A stretch of 30,803 bases of DNA from the UHGV virus genome UHGV-0140727; one strand, written 5' to 3'. This DNA is from a virus. This document shows positions 11,205-23,667 of this stretch, one piece after another. Every line of letters starts with the position of its first letter. The stretch's first letter is position 1. The position numbers and the translations under genes are program-made. Below the pieces are notes generated by a model. It saw only the letters and a program-made list of their open reading frames with translations, was not told where the DNA came from and did not search any database.

Positions 11205-12821
11205 TCAACGTCTAAGCCCCTCATATGGGTTTCCTCTCACTAAGTCTGTGTGAGCACCCATTGATGGTGGCTTGAATAATTTAACTTCGTTAAGACTGTT
11301 GAAAGCATCACTGGTAGCATCCACTTGGTCATCTTTAGTTTTGCCATCACCACAAAAGCCTTCAAGCTCTTGAAAGTAAGCTTCGTTCCAACTACCTCTC
11401 AAGACTTTTACAAGTCCAGCTTCAGAAGCAGCAGAAAATCCCGCAAAGCGGGTAACTTTATCTTTATTTGTTGGTTTAGCTCTTGCACGATAGCCTTTCT
11501 CGGCAAGTTTCCTGATGAGGGATGTTGCGTAGGATTTACCAGCAGCGCCTGGGTCTTGAGGGATAAAAATACCAGTTCGCTTACCGTCACTTTCAGCAGT
11601 CAAATTAATTTGTGTTTCGACTCCAGAGGGTCTATCTCTAAATCTTACTACATCAATGATATAATAGCAACCGTCTTTTTTAGATTTACCCATCTTAACA
11701 CCTGCTGTCCAGTCTGGGTTAGGGTTAATCTCAGATGGTAAAGTTGCTGCTAAGTCCCATGCTCTAACATCAAATACATCTTCTGGGAGTGAATCAACAA
11801 TCTCACACCATTGTCTTTGCCAGTAGTTTGAACCTTCTGCACGAGCCTTCCAGTTACCGAAACGAAGTCTTGCAACGTTTACAGGAGTGTTGTTTTCCAA
11901 CTTACCACGGTACTTAGGCTCTAAGAAGTCAAGGATTGGGTTATCATCAATCGTACCAGAGATGAAGGTGTATGTTTGAGGAATCTCAAGAGGGAACATT
12001 TCAAGAATCTTGTCTCTCTCCCAATCAGACACCATCACACCATCATTCATTACATACCAACGAATACGACCACACTTTTCAGGGTCTGGGTAACCTTCTT
12101 CATCTAAGAATGGCTCTACCCAATCATAAATAAAATGGTCTCTGTCTGGGTTCATGGAAATCTTCATGTATGAATCACCTTCAGCACCAGAACGTAGACG
12201 GGTTTGTAGGTATGAAATCTGTGAAGCAGAGAAGTGTGTACCTTCGTCAAAGTAAATAGCTGAGTATTCAATACCCTGATGACCTTCAGCGTGCTTTTCA
12301 AGTTCTAGGTAGGTAAACTTGATAGTTGCCCCAGAAGGGAATGTGATAGTCATTTTCTGCTCGTGAGGAATCCCACCAAACTTACCAAATAGTTTCTTTG
12401 CAGCAGGCCATAAACCACCTTGTAACTGTGTTGTATTTCGACGGAAATATACAGCATTATAGTTAGGGTCTTCAATAAATCTTAAAGAGTCCATTAACAA
12501 TGCGGCAGTTTTACCAGCACCAGCAGCACCACCATAAAGAACCAAGTCAGCATTAGTGTTTAAAAAGACCTCTTGAGAACCCGGCTGAGGGGCTACATAG
12601 TTCTTATCAGTCATCAATTTAAAGATGAGGCGAACTTGGTCTGGTGTGTATCTTAATAAAGTCAGAATTTGAGTTGGAAGGAATTTAGAGGGGTCTTTAC
12701 CGAATGATTTGATAATTTCTTTTACTTCATCAGAAAGCCCCAACTCTCCAGCTAGGACTTTCCTAACATCTTCCACTCGCTTCTGCTTAACAGCATTTAA
12801 GTCCATTAAGCACCTCCGCAA
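11205..12821 (-). CDS. Terminase large subunit
   Basis: 538-aa ORF with a Walker A P-loop (LYGGAAGAGKTAAL) in the N-terminal ATPase region and an acidic C-terminal nuclease-like region, followed by the portal gene. Confidence 0.8.
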   Translation of the reverse strand: MRRCLMDLNAVKQKRVEDVRKVLAGELGLSDEVKEIIKSFGKDPSKFLPTQILTLLRYTPDQVRLIFKLMTDKNYVAPQPGSQEVFLNTNADLVLYGGAAGAGKTAALLMDSLRFIEDPNYNAVYFRRNTTQLQGGLWPAAKKLFGKFGGIPHEQKMTITFPSGATIKFTYLELEKHAEGHQGIEYSAIYFDEGTHFSASQISYLQTRLRSGAEGDSYMKISMNPDRDHFIYDWVEPFLDEEGYPDPEKCGRIRWYVMNDGVMVSDWERDKILEMFPLEIPQTYTFISGTIDDNPILDFLEPKYRGKLENNTPVNVARLRFGNWKARAEGSNYWQRQWCEIVDSLPEDVFDVRAWDLAATLPSEINPNPDWTAGVKMGKSKKDGCYYIIDVVRFRDRPSGVETQINLTAESDGKRTGIFIPQDPGAAGKSYATSLIRKLAEKGYRARAKPTNKDKVTRFAGFSAASEAGLVKVLRGSWNEAYFQELEGFCGDGKTKDDQVDATSDAFNSLNEVKLFKPPSMGAHTDLVRGNPYEGLRR

Positions 12822-13250: not shown

Positions 13251-13326
13251 TGGAGAATCCGAAGGGACTCGAACCCTTATAAACCTGTTTTGCAGACAGG
13301 CACATAGCCATTTCTGTCACGGATTC
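13251..13326 (-). tRNA. tRNA-Cys (anticodon GCA)
   Basis: Hand fold on the minus strand: perfect 7-bp acceptor (gaatccg/cggattc), T-arm AAGGG-ACTCGAA-CCCTT on the plus strand, anticodon stem CCTGT/ACAGG with loop CUGCAAA, CCA encoded. Confidence 0.75.
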
Positions 13327-13330
13327 AAAT

Positions 13331-13423
13331 TGGAGGAAGATACCAGACTTGAACTGGTACACCGATTTCTCAGCTACTGGCAGTTTAGCAAACTGCTCCC
13401 TTACCTTTTAGGGTTAATCTTCC
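13331..13423 (-). tRNA. tRNA-Ser (anticodon GCU), type II
   Basis: 93 nt. Perfect acceptor (GGAAGAT/ATCTTCC), T-arm ACCAG-TTCAAGT-CTGGT, anticodon stem GCAGT/ACTGC with loop UUGCUAA, long variable arm, CCA encoded. Confidence 0.7.
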
Positions 13424-13424
13424 A

Positions 13425-14159
13425 TTATTTCTGTAATGCGTTCTTCATTTCTGGTGTTGCAATAGTGTCAATTACACCAGTTTTACAAGCATCATCAAAC
13501 CAGTCTGGTAAGATACCTGCTAAGAACCCATTGATATTCGTTTTAAGGTACTCTGCAATAAGGGCAGCTTCTTCTTCAATCATCTGCACAACTTCATCTG
13601 CATAAGCTGTAATCTTTGAGATACCTTCATTAATCTTACTGACAGCTTGGTTAGCTAAATCAGAAACAGTATCAAGACCCTTATCAATAGCATCTTGTAA
13701 GTCACTTAACACACCATTAACACTATCTAGTGTACTGTTAATCATGTCAATAGCTTTTTGACCATACTCTGTAGCAACACCCATAATACCACTGAATGGT
13801 GTACAACCAACTTGTTCTCCTGCTGCACCCATAACATTGGAGTATCCCTTTGCTACCTGCATACGTGATGAAAACTCATCAATAGACTTTTGACCGTAGT
13901 CTGTTAAGGTCTTAGTGGTTGCTGTAGTGCTTGTCAGGCTTGTTGTAAAGCTGTTTAGAAGGACTGTTGTAAGCCCAGCAGCAACAAGTTTCTCCTTCAT
14001 TGTAGGGTCTGTTACAGAGCTAATAGAGCTTACAAGTGATGTAGAGGCAGATACGGTTCCACCGAGAACTGCTGCACCAGTAATAAGTGGGTTAGAAAAC
14101 CCTTTACCGGTTTTTAAGAGATTAAAAATCTCCTTACCTTGTTCTGTCATCTCTTTCAT
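13425..14159 (-). CDS. Hypothetical Ser/Thr-rich protein embedded between tRNA genes
   Basis: ORF track gives 13425-14222, but the first 21 codons overlap a tRNA. The internal ATG at 14157-14159 has an AAAGGTG ribosome-binding site upstream. The protein has a low-complexity Ser/Thr-rich segment and a helical C-terminal half. Confidence 0.45.
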   Translation of the reverse strand: MKEMTEQGKEIFNLLKTGKGFSNPLITGAAVLGGTVSASTSLVSSISSVTDPTMKEKLVAAGLTTVLLNSFTTSLTSTTATTKTLTDYGQKSIDEFSSRMQVAKGYSNVMGAAGEQVGCTPFSGIMGVATEYGQKAIDMINSTLDSVNGVLSDLQDAIDKGLDTVSDLANQAVSKINEGISKITAYADEVVQMIEEEAALIAEYLKTNINGFLAGILPDWFDDACKTGVIDTIATPEMKNALQK

Positions 14160-14176
14160 TAAGCACCTTTGAAATT

Positions 14177-14244
14177 GGTAGCCCAGTGGGATTTGAACCC
14201 TCTTCTCATGTTTTTCAGACACGCGCTTTAACCATATAAGCTAC
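14177..14244 (-). tRNA. tRNA-like, probable tRNA-Phe (anticodon GAA), atypical D region
   Basis: T-arm (GAGGG-TTCAAAT-CCCAC), anticodon stem-loop CGTGT-CUGAAAA-ACATG and a 7-bp acceptor with two G-U pairs are present. No convincing D-stem could be folded and CCA is not clearly encoded. Ends approximate. Confidence 0.4.
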
Positions 14245-14257
14245 TTGGACTATAAAT

Positions 14258-14333
14258 TGGGGTGACCTACGGGATTTGAACCCGTATAGACCATGTTCAC
14301 AGCATGGGTCATTACCATTTATGATAAGGCCAC
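14258..14333 (-). tRNA. tRNA-His (anticodon GUG)
   Basis: T-arm ACGGG-TTCAAAT-CCCGT (sense), anticodon stem CCATG/CATGG with loop CUGUGAA, 7-bp acceptor with one G-U pair, discriminator C, CCA encoded. Confidence 0.7.
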
Positions 14334-14364
14334 ATTTAAGGACTCTCGTAAGAATCCTTAGAAG

Positions 14365-14440
14365 TGGCAGCGGCATAAGGATTTGAACCTTAATAAGACA
14401 GCTTCAGAGACTGCTGCATTGCCAGTTATGCTATACCGCT
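14365..14440 (-). tRNA. tRNA-Gln (anticodon CUG)
   Basis: T-arm TAAGG-TTCAAAT-CCTTA, D-stem GCAT/ATGC, anticodon loop CUCUGAA on a stem with two terminal G-U pairs, 7-bp acceptor, CCA encoded. Confidence 0.55.
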
Positions 14441-14445
14441 AAATT

Positions 14446-14516
14446 TGGTACTCCATATCGGATTCGAACCGATACATAACACAGATTTTAAGTCTGGCCT
14501 CTCTGCCAATTGGAGT
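14446..14516 (-). tRNA. Compact tRNA-like gene, anticodon UAA (Leu-type anticodon, no long variable arm)
   Basis: 71 nt. Clean T-arm ATCGG-TTCGAAT-CCGAT, 6-bp acceptor plus mismatch, CCA encoded. The only anticodon-like loop is CUUAAAA on a 4-bp stem; the D-stem is 3-4 bp and shares nucleotides with the anticodon stem. Atypical. Confidence 0.4.
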
Positions 14517-14526
14517 AATGGAGCAT

Positions 14527-14602
14527 TGGCGGGGGATGTTGGAATTGAACCAACTTCTTCGATTTCAAAGACCGAGGTTTTAACCTTGTAAACTAATCCC
14601 CT
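14527..14602 (-). tRNA. tRNA-Gln (anticodon UUG)
   Basis: T-arm GTTGG-TTCAATT-CCAAC, D-stem GTTT/AAAC, anticodon stem TCGGT/ATCGA with loop CUUUGAA, 6-bp acceptor plus a terminal mismatch, CCA encoded. Confidence 0.65.
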
Positions 14603-14610
14603 TTAAATCT

Positions 14611-15168
14611 TTACTTTCTCAGTGGATGAATAAAGAATGCCAACATAACTCTTTCCCTTGAGAATGCTCTTTCTTCTGGGACAACACTTTTTAGTTTCCA
14701 TCCAATATAAATTCTCCAGTAAAACTGTTTACCAAAGACTTTAATTGATGGTATAAAAGCGAATAATCCCCAAGCATTACTGTTCCACATTAGGAGATAA
14801 CCAGTCTGATTATCTTCAGGGTCAGAACTTACGTTGATATTACCTTTCCACTTAGTCACATCTTTTACATCTCTTCCTAATACATGGTAAGAGAAGTTAT
14901 AAGCTTTGTTTCTCCAGAGCCATCCAACTCTCTGCATGTAGACACCCAGCTTACCAATCTTTCTAATCTTAGCCCATCTTTTAACGTGGCCTTCATCACC
15001 ATCAATTGGGTTGTCATATGTCTCCATCCATCTGAACCCGAAAGGTAAGTGTCCTTTCTTCTCACTGTAGAATGGAACTACGAAAGGTGCTAAGATAACT
15101 GCTAGTATTGCTGCAAGTGGTTCTAGCAAAGCTAAGAAAATCCATGAAGCATATTTTAAGTATCTCAT
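14611..15168 (-). CDS. Hypothetical membrane protein (N-terminal transmembrane segment) inside the tRNA array
   Basis: 185-aa ORF with a hydrophobic N-terminus (WIFLALLEPLAAILAVILAPFVVPF). Its start overlaps the stop of the upstream 80-aa ORF in ATGA fashion (15165-15168). Confidence 0.5.
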   Translation of the reverse strand: MRYLKYASWIFLALLEPLAAILAVILAPFVVPFYSEKKGHLPFGFRWMETYDNPIDGDEGHVKRWAKIRKIGKLGVYMQRVGWLWRNKAYNFSYHVLGRDVKDVTKWKGNINVSSDPEDNQTGYLLMWNSNAWGLFAFIPSIKVFGKQFYWRIYIGWKLKSVVPEERAFSRERVMLAFFIHPLRK

Positions 15169-15407
15169 TGTCTAACCCTCGTAAGGAGGTAAGCATTATT
15201 ACTTGTTTCTGAGCTTTCTGGTAACATTGTCTCAAAATTGACACTTTTAAGTTGTCTTCCACCAAAGCAATGACCAATAAATCTTTCTACTTTTATTGGG
15301 TCGCATTCCCATCCGACTTTTAAGAAAATGTGGGTATCTATAGTGGGAACCCTTACAAACTCAATACTATTGGGATTTTCATGTTCAACGACGATTAATG
15401 TTTGCAT
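15165..15407 (-). CDS. Hypothetical protein, first gene of a two-gene operon inside the tRNA array
   Basis: 80-aa ORF with an AGAGGA ribosome-binding site 5 nt upstream of the ATG at 15405-15407, translationally coupled to the downstream membrane protein. Confidence 0.45.
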   Translation of the reverse strand: MQTLIVVEHENPNSIEFVRVPTIDTHIFLKVGWECDPIKVERFIGHCFGGRQLKSVNFETMLPESSETSNNAYLLTRVRQ

Positions 15408-15425
15408 AAATTCCTCTTGCTTATC

Positions 15426-15501
15426 TGGCGCAGGATAAGGGATTCGAACCCATACTAACAGTTTCGTAGACTGTTGCTCTATCCATTTGAACTAATCCTG
15501 C
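15426..15501 (-). tRNA. tRNA-Arg (anticodon ACG)
   Basis: Perfect 7-bp acceptor (GCAGGAT/ATCCTGC), T-loop TTCGAAT, perfect anticodon stem ACAGT/ACTGT with loop CUACGAA, CCA encoded. Confidence 0.75.
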
Positions 15502-15615
15502 TTACCTACGAGAACACCATACAGTTTTTCACAAACTTTGTTTTTACGTCTGTTTAGATATGACGCTCTAAACTTTTTTGCGATGGACTTATCACTCATA
15601 GTGCTCTCCTAAAAT

Positions 15616-15693
15616 TGGTGTTCCAAGACGGATTCGAACCGTCACTAATACAAGGTTTGAGCTTGCATCCTCTGCCAATTGGGATACTGGAAC
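15616..15693 (-). tRNA. tRNA with anticodon CAA (Leu-type anticodon, short variable region)
   Basis: T-arm GACGG-TTCGAAT-CCGTC, 7-bp acceptor, discriminator A, CCA encoded, anticodon stem GCAAG/CTTGT with loop CUCAAAC. Variable region is only about 6 nt, so it is not a canonical type II Leu tRNA. Confidence 0.5.
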
Positions 15694-15694
15694 A

Positions 15695-15769
15695 TGGTAC
15701 TCACTAAAGGACTTGAACCTTTTTCTTCATCTTGTAAGGGTGATGTTTTACCATATAAACTAAGCGAGT
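15695..15769 (-). tRNA. tRNA-Val (anticodon UAC)
   Basis: T-arm AAAGG-TTCAAGT-CCTTT, D-stem GTTT/AAAC, anticodon loop CUUACAA on a stem with one mismatch, 7-bp acceptor with one G-U pair, CCA encoded. Confidence 0.65.
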
Positions 15770-15864
15770 GTGAAAGAGGTCTGAAGTTGTGCCGCTAACT
15801 CAACTCCGTGGAATTTGTTACGGTCTTCAGTTGACACCAGCGGTCTTTCACTTGACCCCTGAAT

Positions 15865-15940
15865 TGGTGCTCCCACAAGGATTCGAACCCTGATAAGTTG
15901 CTTACAAGGCAACCGTAATAGCCAATTATACGATAGGAGC
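15865..15940 (-). tRNA. tRNA-Thr (anticodon UGU)
   Basis: Perfect anticodon stem GTTGC/GCAAC with loop CUUGUAA, T-loop TTCGAAT, 7-bp acceptor with one G-U pair, CCA encoded. Confidence 0.75.
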
Positions 15941-15946
15941 ATTATT

Positions 15947-16021
15947 TGGAGCATCCAGAGGGAATCGAACCCTCAACCTCAGTTTGGAAGACTGTAATTT
16001 TCCCGTTTAAACTATGGATGC
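15947..16021 (-). tRNA. tRNA-Gly (anticodon UCC)
   Basis: Perfect acceptor (GCATCCA/TGGATGC), T-arm GAGGG-TTCGATT-CCCTC, anticodon loop CUUCCAA, CCA encoded. Confidence 0.7.
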
Positions 16022-16027
16022 ACTAAT

Positions 16028-16103
16028 TGGTGGAGTCACTGAGAATTGAACTCAGTTCCCAAGTTTGCAAAACTCGAATTTTAACCATATAAACTATGAC
16101 CCC
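16028..16103 (-). tRNA. tRNA-Ala (anticodon UGC)
   Basis: T-arm CTGAG-TTCAATT-CTCAG, anticodon stem CGAGT/ACTTG with loop UUUGCAA, acceptor with one G-U pair, CCA encoded. Confidence 0.65.
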
Positions 16104-16109
16104 ATTTTT

Positions 16110-16185
16110 TGGTACAGGTGGAGGGAATTGAACCCATCGTCTTACTGATTAAGAGTCAGCCGCATAACCATTTTGCTACACCTGC
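16110..16185 (-). tRNA. tRNA-Lys (anticodon CUU)
   Basis: T-loop TTCAATT, anticodon stem GCTGA/TCAGT with loop CUCUUAA, 7-bp acceptor, CCA encoded. Confidence 0.6.
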
Positions 16186-16192
16186 ATTAATT

Positions 16193-16270
16193 TGGTAGGA
16201 GACAAGGGATTCGAACCCTCAAACATCTCGTTCTAAGCGAGATAGGTTTACCAATTACCATCAATCTCCC
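16193..16270 (-). tRNA. tRNA with anticodon UAG (Leu-type anticodon, short variable region)
   Basis: Perfect anticodon stem TCTCG/CGAGA with loop CUUAGAA, T-loop TTCGAAT, D-loop with a TTGG signature, discriminator A, CCA encoded. The 5-nt variable region makes it a type I architecture despite the Leu anticodon. Confidence 0.55.
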
Positions 16271-16352
16271 ATTAAATCTTTTTAGAGAACTTCTAAGAAC
16301 CTAAGCAACAAGGTTCCACAACAAGCTGTAATAACCTTAGAAGCCCTCTAAA

Positions 16353-16371
16353 AAGACCTAAAAAGGTCTTT
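16353..16371 (-). terminator. Weak hairpin, terminator-like, inside a 250-nt tRNA-free spacer
   Basis: Hairpin aagacc-taaaaa-ggtctt flanked by A/T runs on both sides (16350-16354, 16369-16371). Orientation ambiguous. Confidence 0.3.
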
Positions 16372-16527
16372 GCATAGTCTTGTTTAATCCGGTGACTAGA
16401 ACCTTTGGAGAGCTTGATATTATCTCTTCTCCGTGACACCTACTAGGTGCTTTATCAGTGCGTACAACAATACACGCGGTATACCAAAGCAACATCCGAA
16501 TGAAGCTTGGCTTTAAATCTTATTAGG

Positions 16528-16615
16528 CGGTAAGTAAAGGAGTCGAACCCTCACCGTATCTCTACAGTGGCAACAGTTTTCAAGACTGTTTGGCTGCCAT
16601 TAGCCGCTACCTACC
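16528..16615 (-). tRNA. tRNA-Ser (anticodon UGA), type II
   Basis: 88 nt. Perfect anticodon stem ACAGT/ACTGT with loop CUUGAAA, long variable arm, T-loop TTCGACT, 7-bp acceptor with one G-U pair. CCA is not encoded. Confidence 0.65.
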
Positions 16616-16628
16616 CCTAATAAGACTT

Positions 16629-16711
16629 TGGCATGGGACGGAGGAGTTGAACCCCTTTGAAACGGTTTTGGAGGCCGTTGCTCATGCCTTAGAGTCTTAA
16701 CATCGTCCCAT
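16629..16711 (-). tRNA. tRNA-like, probable tRNA-Trp (anticodon CCA) with extra nucleotides between acceptor and D-stem
   Basis: Perfect 7-bp acceptor (ATGGGAC/GTCCCAT), CCA encoded, T-loop TTCAACT, anticodon loop CUCCAAA. About 10 nt lie between the acceptor and the D-stem where 2 are expected. Confidence 0.45.
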
Positions 16712-16848
16712 ACTATAATTCGAAGCTTACCCTGTTATCTCAACACTGTCAAGCTTCTTCTCAGATTATTTACATGTTCTGGAAAACATGAGATACAGAC
16801 CACCTCCCTACAGGAAGACCCGCTAAGGCCGTCTAAGTAATCTGCTAA

Positions 16849-17196
16849 CTAATACTTTGCATGTCTTACCCTATGGCAATTTGAACATAGCAAAACACAT
16901 TTGTCAAGTTCATCTTTTAGTTCTTGAGAGAACTTCAGACTTTTTCTATGACCAATGTTAAAATCTTTCTCTGAAGGATTCAAATGATGGAAGTCATACA
17001 CTGCTGGATGATACCTTTTACCACAATCATGACAAACCCCACCTTTGTACTCAATAGCTGAAAGTTTAAGTGCTCTTTGTCTTTCTATGGTTTGCTCATT
17101 AACACACTTTTTACAGTATGAATGAGTTCTCTTACCATCTTTCATGTAGAAATCATTTTCATCCTTGCTAAGTTTGCACCTAATACAAGTTTTCAT
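16849..17196 (-). CDS. HNH endonuclease (homing-endonuclease-like) embedded in the tRNA array
   Basis: N-terminal CxxC...CxxC zinc-finger-like cysteines, then the HNH signature (DFHHLNPSEKDFN ... CSNCHRVRH). ORF track start at 17247 overlaps a tRNA; the ATG at 17194-17196 has a GGAG ribosome-binding site 5 nt upstream, giving 115 aa. Confidence 0.75.
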   Translation of the reverse strand: MKTCIRCKLSKDENDFYMKDGKRTHSYCKKCVNEQTIERQRALKLSAIEYKGGVCHDCGKRYHPAVYDFHHLNPSEKDFNIGHRKSLKFSQELKDELDKCVLLCSNCHRVRHAKY

Positions 17197-17210
17197 GATT
17201 TCTCCAAAAT

Positions 17211-17292
17211 TGGTCGAGGCGGCAGGACTCGAACCCGCATACTCCACTTACTCGGTTAACGGCGGTTTAGAAGACCGCTGAGATACGCCCCG
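17211..17292 (-). tRNA. tRNA-like gene, anticodon unresolved (candidate loop CUUCUAA would give Arg UCU)
   Basis: Clean T-arm GCGGG-TTCGAGT-CCTGC, 7-bp acceptor with one G-U pair, CCA encoded. A perfect stem GCGGT/ACCGC carries loop CUUCUAA, but the remaining nucleotides do not give a canonical D-arm and variable arm. 82 nt. Confidence 0.4.
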
Positions 17293-17540
17293 TAATTATC
17301 TTTAAAGACTCTCTTAGAAAGCCCTTAGAGATGCCCACCTTATTAATCATACCGTGGGCTAGTACGCCAAATTCTTTGATGAGGGATTGGAAGACCTCAC
17401 TGGTGTTTAGCCTATCAAGCTACTGCCAGAAAAACATTGTCGTTTGCATTTATTTTAAATTTGCAAAATAGACGCTACGCAACGAAAACTAAGGTTACTA
17501 TAAAGTAGTCACATCTCAATGTCAACAACTTTATTGAAAT

Positions 17541-17615
17541 TGGTTGTAGGTGAGGGTATCGAACCCTCTTCTAACGGTTATCAGCCGTTTGCATTACCAT
17601 TTATGCTAACCCACA
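17541..17615 (-). tRNA. tRNA-Ile (anticodon GAU)
   Basis: Perfect D-stem GCAT/ATGC, perfect anticodon stem AACGG/CCGTT with loop CUGAUAA, T-arm GAGGG-TTCGATA-CCCTC, CCA encoded. Confidence 0.75.
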
Positions 17616-17617
17616 AT

Positions 17618-17694
17618 TGGAGGTTCAGATGGGAATCGAACCCACATTCATAGGGCTTATGAGACCCTTGCATTACCTTATCTGCGACTGAACC
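17618..17694 (-). tRNA. tRNA-Met (anticodon CAU; elongator or Ile2-type not distinguishable)
   Basis: Perfect acceptor (GGTTCAG/CTGAACC), anticodon stem AGGGT/GCCCT with loop CUCAUAA, T-loop TTCGATT, CCA encoded. G1-C72 pair argues against an initiator. Confidence 0.65.
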
Positions 17695-17698
17695 ATTT

Positions 17699-17774
17699 TG
17701 GTAGAAGTGGAGGGATTCGAACCCATCGCCTGTCAGATTAAAAGTCTGCCGCATCACCATTCTGCTACACTTCC
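17699..17774 (-). tRNA. tRNA-Lys (anticodon UUU)
   Basis: T-loop TTCGAAT, anticodon loop CUUUUAA, 7-bp acceptor, CCA encoded. Confidence 0.65.
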
Positions 17775-17916
17775 ATTAAATTATATTTGTAGATAAGCTA
17801 CCCAGACTTGCTTAAGGTCTGTAGCGATGTGTCTTTTCGGGTTAAATCTAGAATCTACCCTTCCACCTTTGTGGTCGCATACTCACAGGTAAGCTTAATA
17901 ACTTATCTACAAAGAT

Positions 17917-18057
17917 AATTACCAGACCGTTGTTTATCATCTTAAGTGCTACCATTACACCAACTCGACATCTGCCGAGTGAAGGAATCGAACCTTCGCC
18001 TTTTCTTTACCGGAGAAATAGATTGTTTAAGTTTTGCTGTAAACGGTCTTCTGTAAA
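17917..18057 (-). ncRNA. Structured RNA element A: conserved bulged closing helix enclosing a permuted tRNA-like module (Y-RNA-like candidate)
   Basis: Sense strand: 5' TTAC-AGA-AGACCGTT (plus 18040-18055) pairs with 3' AACGGTCT-G-GTAA (plus 17920-17932). Between them, in order: T-arm GAAGG-TTCGATT-CCTTC (plus 17971-17987), a 7-bp acceptor-like hairpin closed by a 4-nt loop (plus 17953-17970), and a D-arm-like GTGTAATGGTAGCAC (plus 17936-17952). No anticodon arm. Confidence 0.45.
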
Positions 18058-18063
18058 TTTGTT

Positions 18064-18145
18064 GAGCCAGACCAAGTTTTAAATTTTTCAAAATTAAATT
18101 GGCTTGAAAATATCATACGTACTTGCTGTATTTGGTCTTCTGCTC
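18064..18145 (-). ncRNA. Structured RNA element B (paralog of A, C, D)
   Basis: Same helix architecture with compensatory changes: outer GAGC/GCTC, 5' AGA opposite 3' G, inner AGACCAA/TTGGTCT, conserved TACAGCAA at the start of the enclosed loop. Confidence 0.4.
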
Positions 18146-18203
18146 CTTTAAAGGATACTCGTAAGAACCCTTTAAGGGAGGGGCTAAATAGCCCTCTCAA
18201 AAT

Positions 18204-18281
18204 TGGCGGTTACGAAGGGATTTGAACCCTCATCATCTCCCGTGACAGGGGAGTATTTTAACCAAATTAAACTACATAACC
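18204..18281 (-). tRNA. tRNA-Asp (anticodon GUC)
   Basis: Perfect anticodon stem CTCCC/GGGAG with loop CUGUCAC, T-loop TTCAAAT, acceptor with one G-U pair, CCA encoded. Confidence 0.75.
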
Positions 18282-18286
18282 TTTAT

Positions 18287-18374
18287 TGGTGTGCCGTGTA
18301 GGAGTCGAACCTACCGAGTCTCAATGACAAGGGATTTACAGTCCCCACCGCTACCATCTACGGGATAACGACAC
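18287..18374 (-). tRNA. tRNA-Tyr (anticodon GUA), type II
   Basis: 88 nt. Anticodon stem GGGGA/TCCCT with loop CUGUAAA, long variable arm, perfect T-stem GTAGG/CCTAC, 7-bp acceptor with one G-U pair, CCA encoded. Confidence 0.7.
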
Positions 18375-18383
18375 ATTTAAATT

Positions 18384-18460
18384 TGGCGGTTAGTCAGGGA
18401 TTCGAACCCTGTGCCATTCGCTTAACAGGCGACCGCACATACCTTATGTGCTTCCTAACC
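18384..18460 (-). tRNA. tRNA-Asn (anticodon GUU)
   Basis: Perfect D-stem GCAC/GTGC, anticodon loop CUGUUAA, perfect T-arm CAGGG-TTCGAAT-CCCTG, CCA encoded. Confidence 0.7.
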
Positions 18461-18470
18461 ATGTTTAGTA

Positions 18471-18543
18471 TTACCAGACCGTATCTTTCAATTTTTTCCG
18501 CTAAAAATTTAATAAATATTGCTGTAAACGGTCTTCTGTAAAT
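18471..18543 (-). ncRNA. Structured RNA element C (paralog of A, B, D)
   Basis: 5' strand is identical to element A over 24 nt (TTTACAGAAGACCGTTTACAGCAA). It pairs with 3' ACGGTCT-G-GTAA (plus 18471-18482): outer TTAC/GTAA, inner AGACCGT/ACGGTCT, enclosing about 40 nt. Confidence 0.4.
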
Positions 18544-18544
18544 T

Positions 18545-18621
18545 TGGAGGCGGGTGCAGGAGTCGAACCTGCCGATACCATGCTAATGAGACATGTGAGA
18601 CGCCCTTTCTCTATACCCGCA
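18545..18621 (-). tRNA. tRNA with anticodon CAU (Met, initiator or Ile2-type not resolved)
   Basis: Perfect T-arm GCAGG-TTCGACT-CCTGC, D-stem GAGA/TCTC, anticodon loop CUCAUUA (U at position 37 is unusual), 6-bp acceptor with a 1-72 mismatch, CCA encoded. Confidence 0.55.
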
Positions 18622-18629
18622 ATTCTTAA

Positions 18630-18709
18630 TGACCAGACCAAATCTCTTCTATGTCCGATTTACCTTCAGATGAATAAGATTAAGTTTGCTGTAATTGGTC
18701 TTCTGTCAA
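18630..18709 (-). ncRNA. Structured RNA element D (paralog of A, B, C)
   Basis: Outer helix TGAC/GTCA, 5' AGA opposite 3' G, inner AGACCAA/TTGGTCT, conserved TACAGCAA at loop start, enclosing about 50 nt. Confidence 0.4.
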
Positions 18710-18712
18710 AAC

Positions 18713-18790
18713 TGGCGTTCCAGAAGGGATTTGAACCCTCAAATATCCACTTTGAAAGAGTGGTGACTTTACCATTTTGTCTACTGGAAC
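18713..18790 (-). tRNA. tRNA-Glu (anticodon UUC)
   Basis: Perfect acceptor (GTTCCAG/CTGGAAC), perfect anticodon stem CCACT/AGTGG with loop CUUUCAA, T-loop TTCAAAT, CCA encoded. Confidence 0.75.
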
Positions 18791-18797
18791 ATTAATT

Positions 18798-18874
18798 TGG
18801 TCTCTGTTGGAGGACTTGAACCTCCGGCCTTACCGCCCCAAACGGAACGCTCTACCAAGCTGAGCTAAACAGAG
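18798..18874 (-). tRNA. tRNA-Pro (anticodon UGG)
   Basis: Perfect acceptor (CTCTGTT/AACAGAG), perfect D-stem GCTC/GAGC, perfect T-arm GGAGG-TTCAAGT-CCTCC, anticodon loop UUUGGGG with G37, CCA encoded. Confidence 0.7.
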
Positions 18875-19039: not shown

Positions 19040-20455
19040 TTACCAGATATAACGGTCAATCATTACTGCTTTGAGCATTACGCTGATTGGGTCAAACTTC
19101 TCACCACCAAGCAGAGCTTTTAAAGTGGCTGGAGAGAAACCAGATACCATTGCTACACCGTTATCCTTAACAGATACTTCGCAAGTACCGTTACGGTTTG
19201 CTAAGTACCAGAATACCAGTTGTGGCATTTCGTATCCAGCTTTTTTGTACTTACTCTGGATTGCTTCAAAGTTTGTACGACCGTTAGCTCCATCAACCTG
19301 ATTGAACTCCATATCGGAGAAGATGATAAGCTTACTTGGCATATCTTTCTGAGTCAAGTTGTTTCTTTTACCTGTCTCAAGAATACGGTCAAAAGCTGCT
19401 TGTAAGTTAGTTGAGCCATATTCAACGTGTCGCATCACCTGACGATGACGGTTTCGTAAATCACCACTCAGTTCGATGAAGTGAGGGTTTGTTGAATAAA
19501 CCATTAACTCATTCTTAAAGCAACCTGTATTGCGTTCTGCTACATACAAGGCAAGTGATACACCAATATCCAGAGCAGTAATGGAGCCAAAATTCACCCA
19601 AGACATTGAACTTGATACATCAGACATACACAAGATGTTTTCACCTTCTGCCATCCAGTTTGGTAGTGCTTTCCACTGCTCATTAGCAACATCTGCATTA
19701 CCATACTTGACAGATTTAATCACATCGTATGGGTAAACAGCACCAGCGTTAATCTTAGTCTCACCTTTTGATAAGGACTCGATGTAAGCTTTGTAACGCT
19801 CTCCATCTTTACGGTTAAACAGTTTTTGGTAACGTGCAGCAGCAAGTGAAGGAATCTTACTGTAGTCAATCTTACCAAACTCATTAGCAGAGATTTTTTG
19901 CTCAACTGTATCAGATAGTGCAGACAACAGTGTGCGGTACTCTTTCTCACTCAAGTTGGCAAACTTGCAGAAACGTTTTACAAACTGCTTATGACGTGGT
20001 TTGACTCGTGGTAACCACTTAGCCGCCAAACCTGCTGTTGCAGGGTCTAGTAATGCTGCTTCTAAATGTTTGAAGGCATCTGTCTCGAAACGAGTACCTA
20101 CGAAGATTTTGAAGTCATCAAAACGACCAAGTTCTGCAATCTTATCCATAATGCGAAGAACCTGCGTAGACTCTAAAACTTTGTCTTCAATTGCTTGAAG
20201 CAAAACAGTTCTGAAGGCTTTACGCTCACCCATACCTTCTCGTACATCTCGCATATGAAGCAAAATACGAACTGCAACATCAACATCCTCACGCAAAGCT
20301 TTGTAGAACAGGTCTGGTAAGATTTCTACGTTGCTACGGCTTGAACCAGCAGCTTTGTAAAAGTCTACAAGAGCAGACATTGATGAAGTATGGTTTACAG
20401 CACCATTTTCAGTTCGACCTGCATGAAGGTACGCATGTTTAAATAATTCGCTCAT
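19040..20455 (-). CDS. vWA-domain protein with a helical N-terminal domain; Ro60/Rsr-like (TROVE + vWA) architecture, DUF2828-like
   Basis: 471-aa ORF. The C-terminal half has the vWA MIDAS signature in order: DxSxS (LCMSDVSSSMS), a downstream GSTN threonine, and LIIFSDME. The N-terminal ~250 aa is predicted helical. The TROVE assignment is inference from architecture and context, not from a search. Confidence 0.55.
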   Translation of the reverse strand: MSELFKHAYLHAGRTENGAVNHTSSMSALVDFYKAAGSSRSNVEILPDLFYKALREDVDVAVRILLHMRDVREGMGERKAFRTVLLQAIEDKVLESTQVLRIMDKIAELGRFDDFKIFVGTRFETDAFKHLEAALLDPATAGLAAKWLPRVKPRHKQFVKRFCKFANLSEKEYRTLLSALSDTVEQKISANEFGKIDYSKIPSLAAARYQKLFNRKDGERYKAYIESLSKGETKINAGAVYPYDVIKSVKYGNADVANEQWKALPNWMAEGENILCMSDVSSSMSWVNFGSITALDIGVSLALYVAERNTGCFKNELMVYSTNPHFIELSGDLRNRHRQVMRHVEYGSTNLQAAFDRILETGKRNNLTQKDMPSKLIIFSDMEFNQVDGANGRTNFEAIQSKYKKAGYEMPQLVFWYLANRNGTCEVSVKDNGVAMVSGFSPATLKALLGGEKFDPISVMLKAVMIDRYIW

Positions 20456-22165: not shown

Positions 22166-22537
22166 ATGAAAGCTAAGAGTGCAAAAGACTTTTATTGCTT
22201 CCTACAATCCTATATCAATTCCGTGCAAAATGGTGAAAGGTACAACCTTAATGATGTTATCCCAACACCTTTGACATGGAGACTCAGTAAATGGCCTGAA
22301 GAAGATATTACACCAACAAGCGAACAACGCACCTACAAACCTGAAATCAATATTCCAGACTCTGAGAATCTGTTATATCCAATGTTCCATATCGTTGGAC
22401 TTGGAAGATTCCTTATGGATATCCAGTATGTAATTGGTAAAGGTTATAAGGTTAAAGGTATTGTTGTTGGTGATGTATCTCCGCATCACAAAGGTTATTT
22501 TAGACTAAACGCACATTTAGAGGCTAAAAAGAAATGA
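22166..22537 (+). CDS. Hypothetical protein; stand-alone paralog of the N-terminal domain of the downstream Ig-like protein
   Basis: 123-aa ORF. It aligns by eye with residues 1-105 of the next ORF (KAK..DF..F...I..V..G.RY......P.TWPE.DI.....Y.P....P.S..LLY......DLQY.I..GK). Stop overlaps the next start (ATGA at 22534-22537). Confidence 0.55.
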   Translation: MKAKSAKDFYCFLQSYINSVQNGERYNLNDVIPTPLTWRLSKWPEEDITPTSEQRTYKPEINIPDSENLLYPMFHIVGLGRFLMDIQYVIGKGYKVKGIVVGDVSPHHKGYFRLNAHLEAKKK

Positions 22538-23667
22538 TTAAAGCAAAGACTTACCCAGACTTCAAAGAGTTTGTGAAGGGTTTCATTGCAAATGTAAAGG
22601 CTGGTAAGAGATATGATTTTAGAACATATCAAGAGGCTATTTTACCACTTACCTATAGTTCATATTGGCCTGAAGCTGATATTGCAGAAGTTGAGAAGTT
22701 TGACTACAAACCAGACTACAAAGTTCCATTTAGTGATGAATTGCTTTACAGTGTTGGTGCACAGATGAGAACTGCTGATTTCTTCATGGATTTGCAGTAT
22801 GCAATCATCAATGGTAAAGATGTTGACACAATTTACTGTGAATGGTTGGCAAGAGTTAAGCCGTTCTCAATGTTGAATGCTAAGTTGAAGGATGCTATTA
22901 AGCCACCAGCAATTACTCAGCAACCAACAGGTCAAACAGTCAATGAGGGTGGCACACTTACTCTAAGCATTCTAGCAACTAACGCCACTGGATATCAGTG
23001 GAAGAAGGATGGTGAGGACATCCCTAGTGCCAATTCTGCAACTTACACAAAACAGTCAGTAGCACCTTCTGACGCTGGTTCATACACTTGTGTTGTATCT
23101 GGAGAGGGTGGAACAAGTGTTACCTCAGATGCAGCAACAGTGACTGTGAACGCACTACCTGTGATTACACAACAACCTTCTAGCCAGACCATCAATGAGG
23201 GTGGAAACATCAACTTGGAAGTGACTGCAACAGGTGCAACAGGTTATCAGTGGAAGAAAGATGGCTCTGACATTCCTTCGGCTACAGATGCAACCTATAG
23301 TAAGTCTGGTGCTCTGCCAGCAGATGCAGGTTCATACACTTGCGTTGTAACAGGTGCAGGGGGTTCTGTTACTTCTAGCCCTGCAACAGTTACTGTGAAT
23401 GCACTTCCTGTCATCACTCAACAGCCAACCAATCAAGAAATCAATGAAGGTGAGACCTTAACGTTGAATGTTGTGGCAACAGGTGCAACAGGTTATCAGT
23501 GGAAGAAAGATGAGGAAGACATCCTCGATGCAACTACTGCAACCTACACCAAAGAAGGAGCAACCGCTGCTGATGCAGGAAGCTACACCTGTGTAGTTAC
23601 TGGCGCAGGTGGCTCTGTAACATCTAATGCAGCAACAGTTACAGTTAATCCAGCAGGGGAGGCATAA
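22534..23667 (+). CDS. Ig-like repeat protein (N-terminal domain plus three tandem Ig-like domains)
   Basis: 377-aa ORF with three ~83-aa repeats, each carrying ITQQP..Q.(I/V)NEG, ATGATGYQWKKDG, DAGSYTCVV.G.GGSVTS and ATVTVN(A/P), an I-set/Big-like Ig-fold signature. Confidence 0.6.
   Translation: MIKAKTYPDFKEFVKGFIANVKAGKRYDFRTYQEAILPLTYSSYWPEADIAEVEKFDYKPDYKVPFSDELLYSVGAQMRTADFFMDLQYAIINGKDVDTIYCEWLARVKPFSMLNAKLKDAIKPPAITQQPTGQTVNEGGTLTLSILATNATGYQWKKDGEDIPSANSATYTKQSVAPSDAGSYTCVVSGEGGTSVTSDAATVTVNALPVITQQPSSQTINEGGNINLEVTATGATGYQWKKDGSDIPSATDATYSKSGALPADAGSYTCVVTGAGGSVTSSPATVTVNALPVITQQPTNQEINEGETLTLNVVATGATGYQWKKDEEDILDATTATYTKEGATAADAGSYTCVVTGAGGSVTSNAATVTVNPAGEA
22912..23655 (+). repeat. 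Three tandem ~249-bp in-frame DNA repeats encoding the Ig-like domains
   Basis: Near-identical nucleotide blocks, for example caacaggtgcaacaggttatcagtggaagaaagatg at about 23229 and 23478. Confidence 0.6.

Follow-up and report, generated by a model that had tools for sequence, protein, structure and literature searches.

Type I leucine tRNAs with short variable loops in a Felixounavirus tRNA array and their probable role in leucine decoding

The DNA analysed here (the window) is the whole 30,803-nucleotide (nt) stretch of the virus genome UHGV-0140727, and it carries a tRNA array in which the genes with leucine anticodons, tRNA-Leu(UAA), Leu(CAA) and Leu(UAG), all have a short, type I variable region. 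These three genes very probably encode functional elongator tRNAs that the host's (E. coli or Salmonella) own leucyl-tRNA synthetase (LeuRS) charges with leucine and that supply leucine codons during infection. This reading is based on the observed structure of the genes, their conservation and covariation among phages, the leucine identity elements in their bodies and the leucine meaning of the codons concerned; from these we infer that the genes are expressed, that their products are modified and that host LeuRS charges them. The genes themselves are known, the same three having been annotated as tRNA-Leu in the reference record of phage Felix O1 as they have been since the first GenBank record, whereas no earlier comment on their type I shape seems to exist.

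All three genes were identified by both ARAGORN and the Rfam tRNA model (RF00005, gathering score 29 bits) run with Infernal, and all lie on the minus strand, which corrects the initial annotation of this DNA. The ARAGORN cloverleaves and the Infernal alignments were concordant on the anticodon loops, CUUAAAA (UAA), CUCAAAC (CAA) and CUUAGAA (UAG), and on variable loops lacking a stem, of 7 nt in Leu(UAA), 5-6 nt in Leu(CAA) and 4-5 nt in Leu(UAG). Type II tRNAs are defined by a variable region of at least 10 nt forming an extra stem-loop, and no such region occurs in the three Leu tRNAs. A long-arm Leu tRNA was sought in the window with ARAGORN and with the Rfam model at gathering and E-value thresholds, and none was found. 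The initial annotation had described three Leu-anticodon tRNAs with a short variable arm and no canonical long-arm Leu tRNA in the array; both descriptions hold (loops of 4-7 nt), and automated folding, through which it had allowed for a refutation, revealed no overlooked long arm and returned the same three anticodons. Its positions for Leu(CAA) and Leu(UAG), 15616-15693 and 16193-16270, were recovered unchanged, whereas Leu(UAA), which it had ended at 14516, extends to 14524 according to ARAGORN. The length of 71 nt given for this gene has to be revised to 79 nt, as an end at 14516 drops 8 nt of the 5' acceptor strand. Likewise, A73, which had been credited to two of the genes, is present together with an encoded CCA in all three (3' ends ...U-A-CCA, ...C-A-CCA and ...U-A-CCA, respectively).

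Leu(UAA) has the acceptor stem GCUCCAU/AUGGAGU (closed by G1.U72), U8 and A9, the D stem CUC/GAG with the D loop CAAUUGGCAGA, an anticodon stem with a C27.U43 mismatch, the variable loop GUUAUGU, of which the last nucleotide is U48, and the T arm AUCGG-UUCGAAU-CCGAU. The acceptor stem of Leu(CAA) is GUUCCAG/UUGGAAC and its D stem UCC/GGA, enclosing the same D loop as in Leu(UAA); its variable loop is (A)UUAGU, again ending in U48, and its T loop is UUCGAAU. Leu(UAG) has the acceptor GGGAGAU/GUCUCCU (containing G1.U72 and U7.G66), an additional nucleotide in the spacer from position 8 to position 10, a weak D stem (G-C, G-C and U-A plus a U.U mismatch), a D loop with AAUUGGUA and the variable loop (U)GUUU, also with U48 as its last nucleotide; Infernal favours an acceptor register shifted by one. 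The variable loop of this tRNA comprises 4 nt next to a 26-44 pair in the ARAGORN cloverleaf, or 5 nt if position 44 is counted.

The bodies of the three tRNAs resemble those of the host's own leucine tRNAs. In E. coli K-12, leuZ (UAA, 87 nt), leuX (CAA, 85 nt) and leuW (UAG, 85 nt) have the same three anticodons and, in ARAGORN cloverleaves, share with the phage tRNAs a 7-base-pair (bp) acceptor stem, U8, a 2-nt spacer, a 3-bp D stem, a 5-bp anticodon stem and an 11-nt D loop of the form xAAUyGGyAnA (A14 A15 .. G18 G19. A20a. A21), as well as U48, a standard T loop, A73 and CCA. The sole architectural difference is the variable region, which consists of 12-14 nt forming a stem-loop in leuZ, leuX and leuW and of 4-7 unpaired nucleotides in the phage tRNAs. 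The stem sequences are unrelated, and the host tRNAs have G1-C72 where two of the phage tRNAs have G1.U72. Because the host genome carries leuZ, leuX and leuW, type I phage and type II host tRNA-Leu would coexist in the infected cell.

The elements required by E. coli LeuRS are A73, A15-U48 as a Levitt pair, G18G19 and A20a within the D loop, and the elbow contacts G18:U55, G19-C56 and U54:A58; the variable arm and the anticodon are dispensable, and an arm-less minimal tRNA-Leu is still charged (PMC9976931). A check of LeuRS identity elements had been suggested in the initial annotation, and the full E. coli set was found in all three tRNAs, approximately so for the D stem of Leu(UAG). In addition to A73, each has U8, A14, A15 and U48, from which the pairs U8-A14 and A15-U48 (trans Levitt) are predicted. 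In Leu(UAA) and Leu(CAA), a 3-bp D stem carries a D loop of 11 nt with G18G19 and A20a, matching the layout of leuZ, leuX and leuW, whereas Leu(UAG) shows this feature only approximately because of the U.U stem mismatch and the extra spacer nucleotide, although the loop motif is present. The T loop UUCGAAU, common to all three, would allow G18:U55, G19-C56 and U54:A58. Crystal structures of bacterial LeuRS bound to tRNA are not known to show any contact with the variable arm, unlike those of the archaeal enzyme. The phage genes would represent tRNA-Leu bodies in which the long variable arm has been swapped for a 4-7-nt loop, a loss that would be tolerated because an E. coli-type LeuRS reads A73, U8-A14, A15-U48, the placement of G18G19/A20a and the D/T elbow, and reads neither the variable arm nor the anticodon. 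Such a mechanism is fully anticipated by the known LeuRS identity rules.

The initial annotation had left two alternatives, namely that the phage uses type I Leu tRNAs or that the tRNAs are charged with something else and recode leucine codons. The first is favoured by the structure, the identity elements, the family-wide pattern and an indirect experimental precedent, the last two described below. The second, in which another synthetase would charge the short-arm tRNAs and UUA, UUG or CUA would be read as another amino acid, draws on their non-textbook shape, is permitted in principle by the anticodon-independent identity of tRNA-Leu, and could appeal to a natural type I tRNA-Leu reported not to be charged by E. 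coli LeuRS (Fan et al., PMC6614811). It was rejected by a codon-to-residue comparison of the terminase large subunit with 92 homologues of ~40-57% identity, many of them from unrelated prophages. Leucine accounted for 57% of homologue residues at the 10 UUA sites, 36% at the 5 UUG sites and 52% at the 4 CUA sites, much like the 50% at the 11 CUU sites, against a background of 4.2% at non-leucine codons, and the residues next in line after leucine at the UUA, UUG and CUA sites were Ile, Val and Met. This comparison indicates that UUA, UUG and CUA mean leucine in the phage. Moreover, the bodies of all three tRNAs carry the leucine identity set, including A73 and A15-U48, and neither G3.U70 (alanine) nor a long arm (serine) nor any obvious determinant for another synthetase was seen in them, while the host's own Leu tRNAs would compete at the same codons. 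Taken together, these points make recoding extremely improbable.

The three tRNAs would instead meet a demand for leucine decoding. UAA and CAA anticodons are expected to read UUA/UUG, and UAG to read CUA and other CUN codons. The window has a G+C content of 39%, and its 403 leucine codons (18 open reading frames (ORFs), 5110 codons) are distributed over UUA (25%), UUG (17%), CUU (27%), CUC (6%), CUA (13%) and CUG (13%). In E. coli, CUG makes up about half of the leucine codons and CUA only a few percent, and UUA, UUG and CUA are read by minor tRNAs in the host. The phage leucine anticodons match exactly the codons that are poorly supplied by the host, and the role of the genes would be one of supply, for the A/U-rich leucine codons of the phage.

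Relatives were sought in viral contigs and in bacteria (one genome per species) with a pattern for class I tRNAs of anticodon UAA that required TTGG at the spacing seen in Leu tRNAs, CTTAAAA as the loop and GGTTCRA not far beyond it; 120 stretches were listed from each scan, and the counts are lower bounds. ARAGORN detected 1109 tRNAs in the 120 viral stretches listed, among them at least 171 Leu tRNAs no longer than 80 nt (142 unique sequences) and at least 29 of 82 nt or more, although the UAA counts and this short:long ratio are biased because the pattern selected short-arm UAA forms. The only unbiased sample consists of the Ser and Tyr tRNAs and of those tRNAs in the same stretches whose anticodons the pattern did not specify, and in it 77/77 Ser and 26/26 Tyr tRNAs were long-armed. 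A73 was found in 110 and U48 in 117 (97.5%) of 120 unique, cleanly parsed viral type I Leu tRNAs, U48 being present in 42% of other isotypes, and 73% had the 3-bp D stem and 11-nt D loop, against ~5% of other isotypes. In the UAA genes, some of these features were imposed by the pattern itself. When only type I Leu tRNAs with anticodons outside the pattern were considered (n=47), A73 was present in 44/47, U48 in 47/47, and A14, A15, G18, G19, A20a and A21 each in 91-97%.

These frequencies bear on whether the genes could have been remoulded from another class I isotype (e.g. Thr, Lys or Phe) whose anticodon mutated to Leu, in which case their identity would not be leucine. A crude isotype proxy was used, in which the anticodon was masked and 835 unique tRNAs were ranked by global identity. 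A few Phe, Thr, Lys and Met tRNAs do occur among the nearest neighbours, at 71-73% identity, and the tRNA-Thr of the array also has an AAUUGG D loop. Against this, of the 50 tRNAs closest to each phage Leu gene, 30-34 (60-68%) were Leu tRNAs, as compared with 17% of the set, and both the 3-bp D stem with its 11-nt loop, which is the layout of the host tRNA-Leu, and U48 set the viral type I Leu tRNAs apart from the other isotypes in the proportions given above. Remoulding is thus considered very unlikely.

When the three window genes were aligned with 37 diverged type I Leu tRNAs of 77 nt (40 sequences, three gapped columns), U8, A14, A15, G18, U33, A35, U48, G53-C56, A58, C61 and A73 were found to be invariant. 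Cloverleaf pairing was maintained in 99.5% of 800 cells, with compensatory changes on both sides at 19/20 pairs, and the covariation score of 1.05, as compared with 0.27 in shuffles, was reached by 0/500 shuffles; when the partner was slid by one to three columns as a control, pairing fell to 33-46%. This pattern indicates that the family members are tRNAs under purifying selection for the class I fold. G1.U72 closes the acceptor in 18/40 of the aligned sequences (G-C in 19, A-U in 3), as it does in 2/3 of the window genes. Leu(UAA) is conserved at 99% identity or more in 216/264 of the phage records that hold it, and Leu(UAG) has two or more alleles; the second, from other Felixounaviruses, is 88.5% identical and differs by compensatory anticodon-stem changes on both strands. 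A chimeric Leu gene was observed in Salmonella phage FG1m (PP068123, 4999-5076), which matches Leu(CAA) exactly in its 5' part and, from CGGUUCGAAUCCG (common to both genes) to the 3' end, matches Leu(UAA) exactly, leaving a hybrid acceptor stem that is mismatched; it is therefore attributed to a deletion by recombination between the Leu(CAA) and Leu(UAA) paralogues that removed the tRNAs between them.

Conservation of this kind is difficult to reconcile with decay, that is, with tRNA-Leu pseudogenes that lost the arm by deletion and were kept as array filler. Such a history could be suggested by the Rfam scores of 44-47.5 bits, which are the lowest among the class I tRNAs of the array (the others scoring 53-65), by the few mismatches and by the 'Pseudo' or 'OTHER' labels in a few records of relatives. 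However, the near-identity of Leu(UAA) across 216 records, the encoded CCA, the pairing and compensatory changes in 40 diverged members and the invariance of U8, A14, A15, G18, U33, U48, the T loop and A73 are all opposed to it. Furthermore, UUA, UUG and CUA together account for 54% of the phage leucine codons, and the array is without any other Leu tRNA. A relative from Escherichia phage OSYSP has also been reported to work in vivo (PMC13596443), and decay is regarded as highly improbable.

The same form of tRNA-Leu is found in a different phage family. In T5-like phages (Demerecviridae), type I Leu tRNAs are 77 nt long and have the type I architecture of the window genes, with A73, CCA and a variable loop of 5 nt whose last nucleotide is U48, and the window Leu(UAG) shares 77% identity over 95% of its length and an identical T arm with the T5-like Leu(UAG). 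The D loop of the T5-like type I Leu tRNAs is GAAUUGGCAUA, as distinct from that of the window Leu(UAA) and Leu(CAA). Three Leu tRNAs of 77 nt (UAG, CAA and UAA) are present in Aeromonas phage AhP_Mru1, and OSYSP (MF402939) has two of type I and of the same length (UAG and UAA), with no further Leu tRNA detected by ARAGORN in the whole genome or by Rfam in the tRNA region; its Leu(UAA) occurs at 95% identity or more in 326 phage records. T5 itself carries a long-arm Leu(UAG) of 85 nt adjoining tRNA-Ala, and the short-arm Leu(UAG) of OSYSP likewise adjoins tRNA-Ala, which is a further argument against remoulding. A phage tRNA-Leu(CGA) in recoded E. coli reportedly goes back to Nyerges et al. 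in 2023, the source cited for it by a later preprint, and several REP phages of the Nyerges group are Felixounaviruses with the Leu genes studied here. In that 2026 preprint (PMC13596443), an OSYSP-derived, anticodon-swapped tRNA-Leu(CGA) is described as replacing serT in recoded E. coli, in which TCG is read as leucine.

Leucine acceptors of reduced form are known from other systems. Animal mitochondrial tRNA-Leu and arm-less E. coli minihelices accept leucine, their identity residing in A73 and A14 or in the D/T core (PMC9976931). Mitochondrial tRNA-Leu have a dedicated LeuRS and a degenerate core, and the minimal constructs are artificial, whereas the phage tRNAs are natural, possess a full canonical core and would depend on the cytoplasmic enzyme of the host. 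The engineered arm-less E. coli tRNA-Leu minihelices are said to have been made by Larkin et al. in 2002, as relayed by a review. A natural bacterial counterpart is the type I tRNA-Leu(CAA) of Streptomyces coelicolor, which has the 5-nt variable loop ACAGC and C48, coexists with type II tRNA-Leu and a single LeuRS, and requires at least 5 variable-loop nucleotides including position 48 for charging (PMC6614811). The three phage Leu-anticodon tRNAs have the form described by Fan et al. (PMC6614811), in which the variable loop is short and unpaired but spans 5 nt or more and takes in position 48; for Leu(UAG) this holds if position 44 is counted.

Several observations weigh against the proposal that host LeuRS charges the phage tRNAs with leucine. 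The S. coelicolor type I tRNA-Leu(CAA) was not charged by E. coli LeuRS, the E. coli enzyme was stated to charge type II tRNA-Leu only, and the Streptomyces enzyme was described as unique among known prokaryotic LeuRS in charging both types (Fan et al. 2019, PMC6614811). The genes are not free of blemishes, namely C27.U43 in Leu(UAA), G1.U72 in two genes, and the weak D stem and extra nucleotide in Leu(UAG). The T5-like short-arm Leu(UAG) is labelled 'tRNA-Pseudo-TAG' in Yersinia phage phiR2-01 and 'tRNA-OTHER' in phage NBEco001, and the OSYSP precedent rests on the description in the preprint and on our own scan of the OSYSP genome. With regard to the first point, the S. coelicolor tRNA is chromosomal, from a high-G+C actinomycete, and has C48, whereas the phage tRNAs have U48 and an enterobacterial LeuRS as the required partner; because of C48 there and U48 here, the result of Fan et al. 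may not transfer to the phage tRNAs.

As to why the arm was lost, relaxed constraint is the most likely reason, and it is favoured because Leu alone loses the arm, Ser and Tyr never doing so in the sample. Bacterial tyrosyl-tRNA synthetase uses the variable arm. Bacterial-type LeuRS makes no use of it (PMC9976931), and where the synthetase does not read the arm, deletions would be tolerated and then fixed in compact phage arrays. Alternatively, arm loss might have been selected as a counter-defence, hiding the phage Leu tRNAs from nucleases or toxins that target the type II variable arm; this reading would add to the explanation given here and does not exclude it. In support, phage tRNAs have been reported to evade anticodon nucleases (PMC10264068), Septu has been reported to cut the variable loop of tRNA-Tyr (PMC13096335), and short-arm Leu tRNAs predominate in the viral stretches listed, although the ratio of 171:29 is biased by the search pattern. 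Literature searches, on the other hand, turned up no bacterial nuclease aimed at the tRNA-Leu arm. In the phage itself the Tyr and Ser tRNAs have retained the arm, and so have 103/103 viral Ser and Tyr tRNAs, a pattern that fits a constraint imposed by the synthetase better than nuclease evasion. The short-arm form is also not specific to phages, being common as a solitary chromosomal tRNA-Leu(UAA) in Actinobacteria. Selection by host defence is accordingly viewed as unlikely, and it is similarly doubtful that the loss recurs in phages so that leucine decoding persists while type II tRNAs are destroyed or blocked via their arm by the host or by a competing element. If the counter-defence reading were true, the enterobacterial LeuRS would be a natural dual-type enzyme, against the published type II-only statement.

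The rarity of these tRNAs implied by the initial annotation was overstated, as tRNAs built in this way are common both among other phages and on the chromosomes of actinobacteria. The bacterial scan returned at least 101 type I tRNA-Leu(UAA) genes, and 93/120 of the stretches listed contained a single tRNA; the solitary type I Leu(UAA) genes were mostly from Actinobacteria (Gordonia, Nocardia, Mycobacterium, Rhodococcus and Arthrobacter relatives), and the idea that short-arm Leu tRNAs are phage-specific was rejected on this basis. The actinobacterial genes are 75-77 nt long and have a 5-nt variable loop ending in U and A73, as in the phage, and their D arm, GCC-CAAUUGGCAGA-GGC, shares its D loop with Leu(UAA) and Leu(CAA) of the window. 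Unlike the phage genes, they are cellular, single-copy and G+C-rich, and a full encoded CCA is mostly absent.

The tRNA array in which the three genes lie (Table 1) gave 24 matches to the Rfam tRNA model, corresponding to 23 of the genes found by ARAGORN and one extra match at 17214-17292, which has a UCU anticodon loop and not a Leu one. The only long-arm tRNAs of the array are Ser(GCU), Ser(UGA) and Tyr(GUA). Over 5.7 kb the array shares 95-97% identity with genomes of Felixounavirus, the genus of Felix O1-like myoviruses that infect E. coli and Salmonella; matches occur in 410 phage records, and the window is assigned to this genus by sequence similarity. In the Felix O1 record, tRNA-His and tRNA-Tyr are flagged as pseudogenes, and both Ser tRNAs are omitted though ARAGORN detects them. 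HNH homing-endonuclease ORFs are inserted among the tRNA genes of Felix O1, for example between Thr and Gly and overlapping tRNA-Ile. Window segment 17292-17541 was also compared with Felix O1, and the main difference between the two arrays appears to lie in mobile endonuclease genes, because the HNH ORF is absent at the Thr-Gly junction of the window (15940-15947). The 471-residue ORF adjoining the array is named 'RNA-binding protein' in Felix O1. Array-neighbour ORFs were considered as candidate tRNA-processing or synthetase genes and were rejected; they give no lead on mechanism because their Pfam matches are to DUF2828/DUF7788, DUF7338 and DUF7217 only. Further away, a 377-residue ORF with three tandem immunoglobulin-like domains (E-values down to 1e-33) probably encodes a virion decoration or adhesion protein unrelated to the Leu tRNAs.

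Table 1. Positions of the leucine tRNA genes and other features in the window.
Feature	Position	Strand	Detail
tRNA-Leu(UAA), type I	14446-14524	-	79 nt; ARAGORN; Rfam RF00005 47.5 bits
tRNA-Leu(CAA), type I	15616-15693	-	78 nt; ARAGORN; Rfam RF00005 44.0 bits
tRNA-Leu(UAG), type I	16193-16270	-	78 nt; ARAGORN; Rfam RF00005 44.7 bits
tRNA array	13251-18874	-	25 ARAGORN tRNAs and one non-canonical tRNA-like gene, small ORFs interspersed
Ser(GCU), long-arm	13331-13423	-	93 nt; ARAGORN
Ser(UGA), long-arm	16526-16615	-	90 nt; ARAGORN
Tyr(GUA), long-arm	18287-18374	-	88 nt; ARAGORN
tRNA(UCU)-like gene	17211-17293	-	Rfam tRNA 31.7 bits (match 17214-17292); missed by ARAGORN
Terminase large subunit	11205-12806	-	
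ORF within array	13425-14222		Pfam DUF7217
ORF within array	14611-15168		Pfam DUF7338
471-residue ORF adjoining array	19040-20455	-	Pfam DUF2828 and DUF7788 only
377-residue ORF	22534-23667	+	Pfam Ig_3, Ig_2 and I-set

The extra Rfam match belongs to a rearranged tRNA(UCU)-like gene that is more unusual than the short-arm Leu tRNAs and of which no description was found in the literature searched. Its acceptor stem has 7 bp, and A73, CCA and a T arm of normal form are present, with no D arm; a 3-bp helix, CUC/GAG, surrounds a 5-bp hairpin with the invariant loop CUUCUAA (UCU, Arg AGA/AGG), a perfect tRNA-Arg(UCU) anticodon loop, and is followed by the invariant CGUUAAY and GUAAnUGGAGUAU (with a D-loop-like AAUUGG) ahead of the T arm. 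Matches were found in 263 phage records, nearly all of them unannotated, and besides Felixounavirus the gene has relatives, at 81-90% identity, among Demerecviridae, Asteriusvirus jumbo phages, Justusliebigvirus and Mydovirus and in a Streptomyces phage. In eight diverged copies, 20/20 of the proposed pairs were always paired, 13 of them with compensatory changes. The gene may be a phage AGA decoder in a rearranged topology, because AGA accounts for 44% of the arginine codons of the window and a canonical tRNA-Arg(UCU) is absent from the array.

Full-text literature searches returned no account of Leu tRNAs with a short arm, whether from phages at large or from Felix O1 or T5, and within the literature searched the term 'type I tRNALeu' was used only by Fan et al. 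2019 (PMC6614811). A 2023 review has tRNA-Leu long-armed everywhere except in animal mitochondria, and the sole paper found on a bacterial type I tRNA-Leu treats the form as a Streptomyces rarity. This published view contrasts with the scans reported here, in which short-arm Leu tRNAs, with hundreds of relatives, are routine in the arrays of coliphages and Salmonella phages and in actinobacterial chromosomes. For annotation, the consequence is that certain pipelines label such genes as pseudo or 'other'; for the engineering of orthogonal tRNAs, a phage type I tRNA-Leu already underlies an E. coli with a swapped code. The finding also bears on whether phage tRNA sets are to be read as codon supply or as anti-defence. 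The frequent absence of the arm from Leu tRNAs, and its constant presence in the Ser and Tyr tRNAs of the sample, amount to a natural experiment reflecting the differing use that synthetases make of the arm as an identity element. The genetic code of the phage is unchanged, and the three tRNAs are almost certainly ordinary leucine decoders in an under-described type I form.

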